A stretch of DNA of 586 bases from Escherichia coli (lineage in GTDB: Bacteria; Pseudomonadota; Gammaproteobacteria; Enterobacterales; Enterobacteriaceae). Shown here piece by piece: positions 1 through 501 of the stretch. Positions within the stretch are counted from its first letter, which is position 1; each line of letters starts with the position of its first letter. The DNA lies in the NCBI RefSeq assembly GCF_003334255.1, contig NZ_QOWU01000219.1; one strand, written 5' to 3'. The translations under genes were made by a program, and so were the position numbers. Below the pieces are notes generated by a model. It was not told the DNA's origin, did no database searches, and was given only the letters and a program-made list of their open reading frames with translations.

Positions 1-134
1 TCGTCAAAAACCCCCTGAACTTCGCCGCCACGTTGTGCTCCGGAGGTGAACTGCGCACGGATCCCCATCACTTCAACAATCGTACTGTCCACCCCGGCAA
101 GGGCGGCATCAAAGGCATTCTGAAAATCACGCAT
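1..134 (-). CDS. FII: Head-completion / head-tail joining protein FII-like; partial, first 44 codons only, C-terminal part lies beyond the window
   Basis: Minus-strand ATG at 134-132 opens a frame reading MRDFQNAFDAALAGVDSTIVEVMGIRAQFTSGAQRGGEVQGVFDD, still open at position 1. It aligns from residue 1 with lambda FII as I recall it (MADFDNLFDAAIARADETIRGYMGTSATITSGEQSGAVIRGVFDD). This ORF is absent from the supplied track, presumably because it is truncated. Its start overlaps the FI stop. Confidence 0.85.
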   Translation of the reverse strand, partial: MRDFQNAFDAALAGVDSTIVEVMGIRAQFTSGAQRGGEVQGVFD

Positions 135-501
135 AAACAGCCATTCCACCATCAACGTGTGTTTTTGCATCTGAGGACATAATCAGAATCACCCGACCAA
201 CATCCGCAAGCTCAACGGATTCCCCCGTTTCACCATCAACGCCACAGAGATGGAGGCAGGTCAGAACTCTGATGCGCGTTAACGCGCCGGATGTTTCCTC
301 ACGAACATCATGAGCCGCGGTTTCCCGCTCCCGGATATCCATATTCATAACCTGTACATCATCGCCGGATGACTGCATTTCCTCTTCCCATTCTGCCACC
401 CGCTGCGCTATCTCTGCGGCACTCCCGGATATATCCGGCTCACGCCCCAGAATCAGGGCCAGTTCATCAAGCCGTTTCAGATTTTGCTCTTTCGTTGCCA
501 T
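127..501 (-). CDS. FI: DNA-packaging protein FI-like (lambdoid head assembly); complete, 124 aa from ATG 501-499 to stop TGA 129-127
   Basis: This is the ORF-track reading frame, trimmed to the internal ATG at 501-499. The product starts MATKEQNLKRLDELALILGREPDISGSAAEIAQRVAEWEEEM, which aligns with my recollection of the lambda FI N-terminus (MTKDELIARLRSLGEQLNRDVSLTGTKEELALRVAELKEEL). An acidic linker and a C-terminal domain follow, as in FI, and the length is close to lambda FI (about 130 aa). A Shine-Dalgarno-like AGGGGG (minus strand, 512-507) sits 5 nt upstream of this ATG. The track's start at 549 is a GTG lying 3 nt after the upstream stop codon, and the extension it adds (MSGGEMPPCLFSQGAD) has no counterpart in FI. 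Confidence 0.85.
   Translation of the reverse strand: MATKEQNLKRLDELALILGREPDISGSAAEIAQRVAEWEEEMQSSGDDVQVMNMDIRERETAAHDVREETSGALTRIRVLTCLHLCGVDGETGESVELADVGRVILIMSSDAKTHVDGGMAVYA

Follow-up and report, generated by a model that had tools for sequence, protein, structure and literature searches.

In phage lambda, gpFI stimulates the joining of the terminase–DNA complex to the prohead, and hence packaging, and is not a component of the virion (PMC4856287, PMC7889075). The protein assists the association of the terminase–DNA complex (complex I) with the prohead, and one proposal places it on the gpE lattice (PMC4856287); its effect is exerted via the major head protein (PMC7889075). By the account of these two papers, Popovic et al. 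2012 found that lambda FI attaches to the major capsid protein of proheads through its C-terminal domain. Phage 21 has an FI protein as well, encoded between gene 7 and gene 8 in the head-gene record of Smith and Feiss (M81255), and the literature searched describes no experiments with that protein.

The window, i.e., the whole stretch of 586 nucleotides of E. coli DNA analysed here, encodes this same protein between the same two neighbours. ORF calling and translation give an FI ORF of 124 aa on the minus strand, running from the ATG at 501..499 to the TGA at 129..127, and its product is 100% identical to phage 21 CPT_21_09 (UMO75424.1, in OL657228) and to 'ORF1' of GenBank M81255. The window DNA is 98.8% identical to phage 21 (M81255, OL657228) across its whole length, and also to a set of lambda-like isolates; its differences from the phage 21 isolate are synonymous or non-coding only. 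In addition, chromosomal prophages of numerous complete E. coli genomes, e.g., several ATCC 25922 assemblies, match it at 100% identity, and there the PGAP name of the product is 'gpFI: DNA-packaging protein FI'. Matches occur in roughly 1,500 E. coli genomes, and at least 80% of the window is present in 888 of 5,426 complete ones. The ORF is very probably the FI gene of a phage-21-type lambdoid E. coli prophage, with a product that, by homology with lambda gpFI, acts as a non-structural DNA-packaging chaperone. As such the gene is already known and ordinary, is routinely and correctly annotated, and is very common in prophages.

Profile searches place the product in the FI family. The Pfam family Packaging_FI (PF14000) matches residues 3–120 with model positions 1–130 of 131 (E = 8.9e-16), and PHROG 92, 'DNA packaging chaperone FI', matches residues 1–123 (E = 1.4e-43), which confirms the initial annotation of the product, made from the letters of the window, as FI-like. 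Lambda gpFI (NP_040588) belongs to the same PF14000 family and resembles the window protein in its gene position, between E and FII, in its domain layout and in the length of its C-domain. Two further PHROG profiles, phrog_15460 ('terminase') and phrog_2353 ('major head protein'), match only through the FI-like parts of the profiles and provide no evidence for those functions. In the latter profile, which has a length of 481, positions 361–473 match FI residues 2–118, a pattern that fits a capsid–FI read-through or fusion (343 aa, spacer and 124 aa) and that could reflect faulty annotation or, in some phages, a genuine fusion.

The gene order capsid, FI, FII is common to the window, phage 21 and lambda. 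Of the major capsid gene (gene 7 in phage 21, the lambda E homologue) the window contains the 3′ end, at 553..586 of the minus strand, with the last 10 codons, ...PDEFVVVQVK, and the stop codon TAA at 555..553. This end is identical to that of phage 21 gp7, and major capsid protein is the annotation of the upstream gene both in phage 21 and in the E. coli prophages. A spacer of 51 nt separates the capsid gene from FI. The ribosome-binding site, read from the sequence as AGGGGG (507..512, minus strand), stands 5 nt before the FI start, and the phage 21 record has the same start annotated, with the ribosome-binding site at the equivalent place. A longer ORF beginning at GTG 549 (140 aa) was rejected because the family alignment begins at MATKE, the ribosome-binding site precedes ATG 501 and the phage 21 start agrees. 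At the distal end, the FI stop codon TGA (127..129, minus strand) overlaps the start of FII in ATGCGTGA (window positions 127–134), a layout that, by its sequence, is typical of translational coupling; in lambda, by contrast, FI and FII are 11 nt apart. The 5′ part of an FII-like head-tail joining gene, gene 8 in phage 21, fills 1..134 of the minus strand with its first 44 codons, starting from ATG 134..132 (MRDFQNAFDAALAGVD...); the annotation of this gene in phage 21 is gp8 / distal head completion protein.

A consensus scan of the capsid–FI spacer finds a terminator-like element at 515..545 of the minus strand, comprising a GC-rich hairpin (545..525, GCGGGGGCgaaaTGCCCCCGT) and then a T-run (524..515). 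The predicted RNA fold of the spacer has an energy of −23.3 kcal/mol and a z-score of −1.84, and an Rfam scan of the window gave no match at E ≤ 1. Nearly every lineage examined, including lambda, 21 and Salmonella, has a hairpin with a U-tract in its E–FI spacer. The stem sequences are unrelated to one another, and the stem in L085 and L131 has a compensatory change from G–C to A–U (CGGGAGC/GCTCCCG vs CGGGGGC/GCCCCCG). The hairpin may attenuate transcription into FI, or it may shield the capsid mRNA from 3′ exonucleases.

The FI protein is predicted to have three parts, i.e., a helical N-domain, an acidic flexible linker and a small folded C-domain. The AlphaFold2 model, for which 30 family sequences were aligned, places helices at residues 4–18 and 28–44, and has pLDDT values below 50 at residues 46–71 and of 85–95 at residues 72–124. 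The N-domain (residues 1–44; 370..501, minus strand), as delimited by BLASTP, invariant columns and AlphaFold, holds the two predicted helices and ends in the RVAEWEEE motif. It is strongly conserved in the FI family, with 12 invariant columns (K4, R10, L11, L14, L18, R20, G26, R34, V35, E40 and E41 among them), and most family members are near-identical to the window protein at the N-terminus, MATKE(Q/E)N...RVAEWEEE. Against lambda FI, BLASTP aligns residues 3–51 alone (34% identity, 60% positives, E = 1e-6), and a global alignment of the first 40 residues gives 42% identity. The alignment of these 40 residues with lambda, as first described, therefore stands, but lambda itself is a divergent family member, and in sequence it is lambda, not the window protein, that is the N-domain outlier of the family.

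The linker (residues 45–71; 289..369, minus strand) is predicted to be disordered and varies in length and sequence across the family, where it holds the gaps, shows no conservation and is unalignable. Residues 37–71 of the window protein include 12 aspartates and glutamates in 35 residues (net charge −9), and the equivalent linker of lambda FI includes 13 in 44 (net charge −11). The initial annotation was right to call this segment acidic and flexible, but not to take it as a departure from lambda: since the lambda linker is equally acidic, the acidity is a trait of the family and not a peculiarity of the window protein. The two proteins do differ in length (132 aa in lambda, 124 aa in the window), and the window linker is the shorter.

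The C-domain (residues 72–124; 130..288, minus strand) is predicted to be arranged as strand-strand-strand-strand-helix-strand and carries Cys82 and Cys86. As had been claimed, it is much less similar to lambda than the N-domain is: BLASTP of the C-terminal 54 residues against the lambda C-part gives about 20% identity and E = 1.6. Within the FI family the C-domains fall into discrete types. Three IMG/VR scans, phage records and exact-protein look-ups yielded 246 loci, from which the capsid, FI and FII products were extracted and which were reduced to 99 unique capsid and FI pairs. The capsids form two clusters, a lambda-type with the VSVQLA end and a 21-type that is about 61% identical to lambda, and the FI C-domains form at least eight types, with the 21-type as type 1 and the lambda-type as type 8.

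Natural chimeric FI genes are found in L236 and L240 (both at 2501–2899) and in L084, L085 and L131 (FI at 3001–3399). In the chimeric proteins of E. coli prophages (P0055, P0082 and P0093) the N-domain is 85–93% identical to that of the window protein, whereas the linker and C-domain, unlike those of window FI, are 80–91% identical to lambda; the adjoining capsid genes are 95–99% identical to phage 21 gp7 and have VVVQVK ends. P0055, from one prophage lineage represented by 17 contigs (e.g., in assembly GCA_003027735.1), lies beside a capsid that has 99% identity to phage 21 gp7; its N-domain is 93% identical to 21, and its C-domain is 80% identical to lambda and 24% identical to 21. P0082 and P0093 have capsids 95% identical to that of 21 and C-domains 91% identical to lambda. 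Compared with the DNA of phage 21 and lambda, L236 and L240 pass from 21-like (90–100%) to lambda-like (80–100%) within FI codons ~34–43, and the crossover site is the RVAE(W/L)EEE motif, which is conserved in both parents. The lambda-like tract of L240 runs on through FII. That of L236 ends at the FI/FII border, where an FII of a third type begins, and here the linker and C-domain make up a cassette of ~280 nt with non-lambda DNA on both flanks. The linker and C-domain are exchanged between lambdoid prophages as a cassette, independent of capsid type, with the crossover at RVAE(W/L)EEE.

A tblastn search of 50,697 phage records found no chimera of 21-type N-domain and lambda-type C-domain in an isolated phage, the full-length matches being all pure lambda-type, and such chimeras are documented only as prophages. 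It is therefore the recurrence of intact ORFs in several diverged lineages that points to a functional chimeric protein. A broader form of the cassette reading holds that the linker and C-domain are a free-standing unit of ~280 nt, swapped independently of both the capsid gene and FII through recombination at RVAE(W/L)EEE, and that, with functional chimeras, docking is not specific for capsid type. We put this forward tentatively, as a possibility somewhat short of an even chance.

Separately, we note three products (P0042, P0044 and P0017) whose sequence is that of the window protein up to and including the linker (...VQVMNMD) and then continues into an unrelated C-terminus, e.g., with ...GGVRFG...GGVRY repeats. 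These ends could stem from frameshifts or from deletions that join FI to a second ORF, or could represent an additional C-terminal module.

An alternative to free exchange is that the FI C-domain evolves in step with its cognate capsid, so that the divergence from lambda is an adaptation to the 21-type capsid, which ends in VVVQVK and not VSVQLA; the initial annotation had proposed, as speculation, that the C-domain tracks this change in the capsid C-terminus. On the lambda side the pairing is indeed constant, in that VSVQLA capsids occur with the lambda-type C-domain only (type 8; 39 of 39 unique pairs). The VVVQVK capsids, however, even when restricted to those with 93% or more identity to phage 21 gp7 among the 99 unique pairs, are accompanied by four C-domain types (type 1, n = 28; type 2, n = 12; type 7, n = 3; type 8, n = 3), and types 2, 7 and 8 beside these capsids are 18–40% identical to the 21 type. 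One of the departures is viable: in the plaque-forming phage PhiR12_1, a type-2 C-domain accompanies a capsid that ends in VVVQVK and shares 95% identity with that of 21. In L236 and L237 (both P0055, with its 17 contigs), a lambda-type C-domain adjoins a capsid that is 99% identical to that of 21, including an identical patch at residues 158–177. C-domain and capsid are positively correlated across loci (Mantel rho 0.53), but the correlations of N-domain with capsid (0.83) and of C-domain with FII (0.67) are stronger; since the order of the three follows map distance, the value for C-domain and capsid is what physical linkage alone would give.

Two of the three IMG/VR hybrid loci carry a lambda-like GG[T/S]EWS at capsid residues 166–171, which would favour co-evolution through a local contact. 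The variable capsid patch at ~158–176 was accordingly considered as a co-varying FI contact and was rejected, because the sliding-window correlation is no higher there (rho 0.56, against 0.19–0.74 in other capsid windows) and the patch of L236 is identical to that of 21. Once co-variation was examined in this way, the proposed link to the capsid C-terminus did not hold, as the type of the FI C-domain is determined neither by capsid type nor by capsid C-terminus. In its strict form co-evolution with the capsid is contradicted, ordinary linkage remains, and we consider adaptation to the 21-type capsid an improbable source of the divergence. The 21-type capsids, which are 93–100% identical overall, have a hypervariable stretch at ~144–205 (RS[TK/AA/EG]NNI.Q....WS...) that differs between prophage lineages (L001–L233); it may form a surface loop under diversifying selection, and is not specifically tied to FI type.

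In sequence and in its predicted model, the window C-domain is homologous to the capsid-binding domain of lambda and has the same fold. Alignment of the C-domain profiles of the 21-clade and the lambda-clade by hhalign gives a probability of 95.5% and E = 1.4e-8 over 51 gapless columns with 20% identity. All C-domain types align without gaps and have equal length and the same hydrophobic pattern, and H84, G102 and G119 are nearly invariant. Among 350,542 PDB chains, the top Foldseek match of the predicted model is 2LSM, 'solution structure of gpFI C-terminal domain' (lambda FI residues 72–132), with a probability of 1.00, a target-normalised TM score of 0.72, 21% identity and a modest E-value of 9.6e-3, the domain being small; the alignment given to AlphaFold held lambda-type sequences and the training structures included 2LSM, so that the fold match is not fully independent. 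A sequence search of the PDB with the window protein did not find 2LSM, its sole match being a chance one to PBP2X (E = 0.74), and 2LSM is found by sequence only with lambda FI as the query.

The two cysteines, residues 82 and 86, are present as first described and are absent from lambda, but they are not conserved in the FI family. Cys82 also occurs in the related Citrobacter and PhiR12 types and is replaced by threonine in the lambda and Salmonella types, and Cys86 is essentially confined to the 21-type and its closest relative, recurring in a few single variants of the Salmonella lineage. Nothing suggests a functional role for either residue. That the C-terminal region should be an unrelated module fused to the conserved FI N-terminus, with cysteines that could mark metal binding or a redox role, is extremely improbable: the insignificant BLASTP comparison with lambda (E = 1.6), the failure of the PDB sequence search to reach 2LSM and the swappable modules implied by natural recombination at the border of N-domain and linker would suit it, but against it stand the gapless alignment with its near-invariant residues, the profile–profile homology, the rank of 2LSM as best fold match, the extension of the PF14000 match to residue 120, and the cysteines themselves, which number just two, are each replaced in other types and come with no conserved CxxC or histidine partners.

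Homology of the C-domain to that of lambda allows a mechanism to be proposed for the window protein. The C-domain is reportedly the head-binding part of lambda gpFI. By analogy, the folded C-domain of the window protein would dock on the major-capsid-protein lattice of the prohead, and the acidic flexible linker and the helical N-domain would reach out from the docked C-domain. FI docked in this manner would speed the joining of the terminase–DNA complex to the prohead, upon which packaging would start. Both capsid binding and the stimulation of packaging are inferred for the window protein from its lambda counterpart.

For the family, the observed pairings mean that capsid type cannot be read from the type of the FI C-domain, and the natural chimeras contradict the account of C-domain and capsid evolving together. 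A type-specific capsid binder would make free swapping unexpected, so that either the bound surface is conserved or the binding is loose. If the chimeras are functional, FI docking would involve a surface that capsids of 61% identity have in common, or would need only weak generic binding; and if the linker and C-domain do move as a free-standing cassette, something other than the capsid, e.g., a host or defence factor, would be behind the rapid diversification of the C-domain. Modular swapping of the C-terminal cassette is a mildly new point, a minor by-product of the analysis of an ordinary gene, and the chimeras are ready-made material with which to ask what the FI C-domain recognises.
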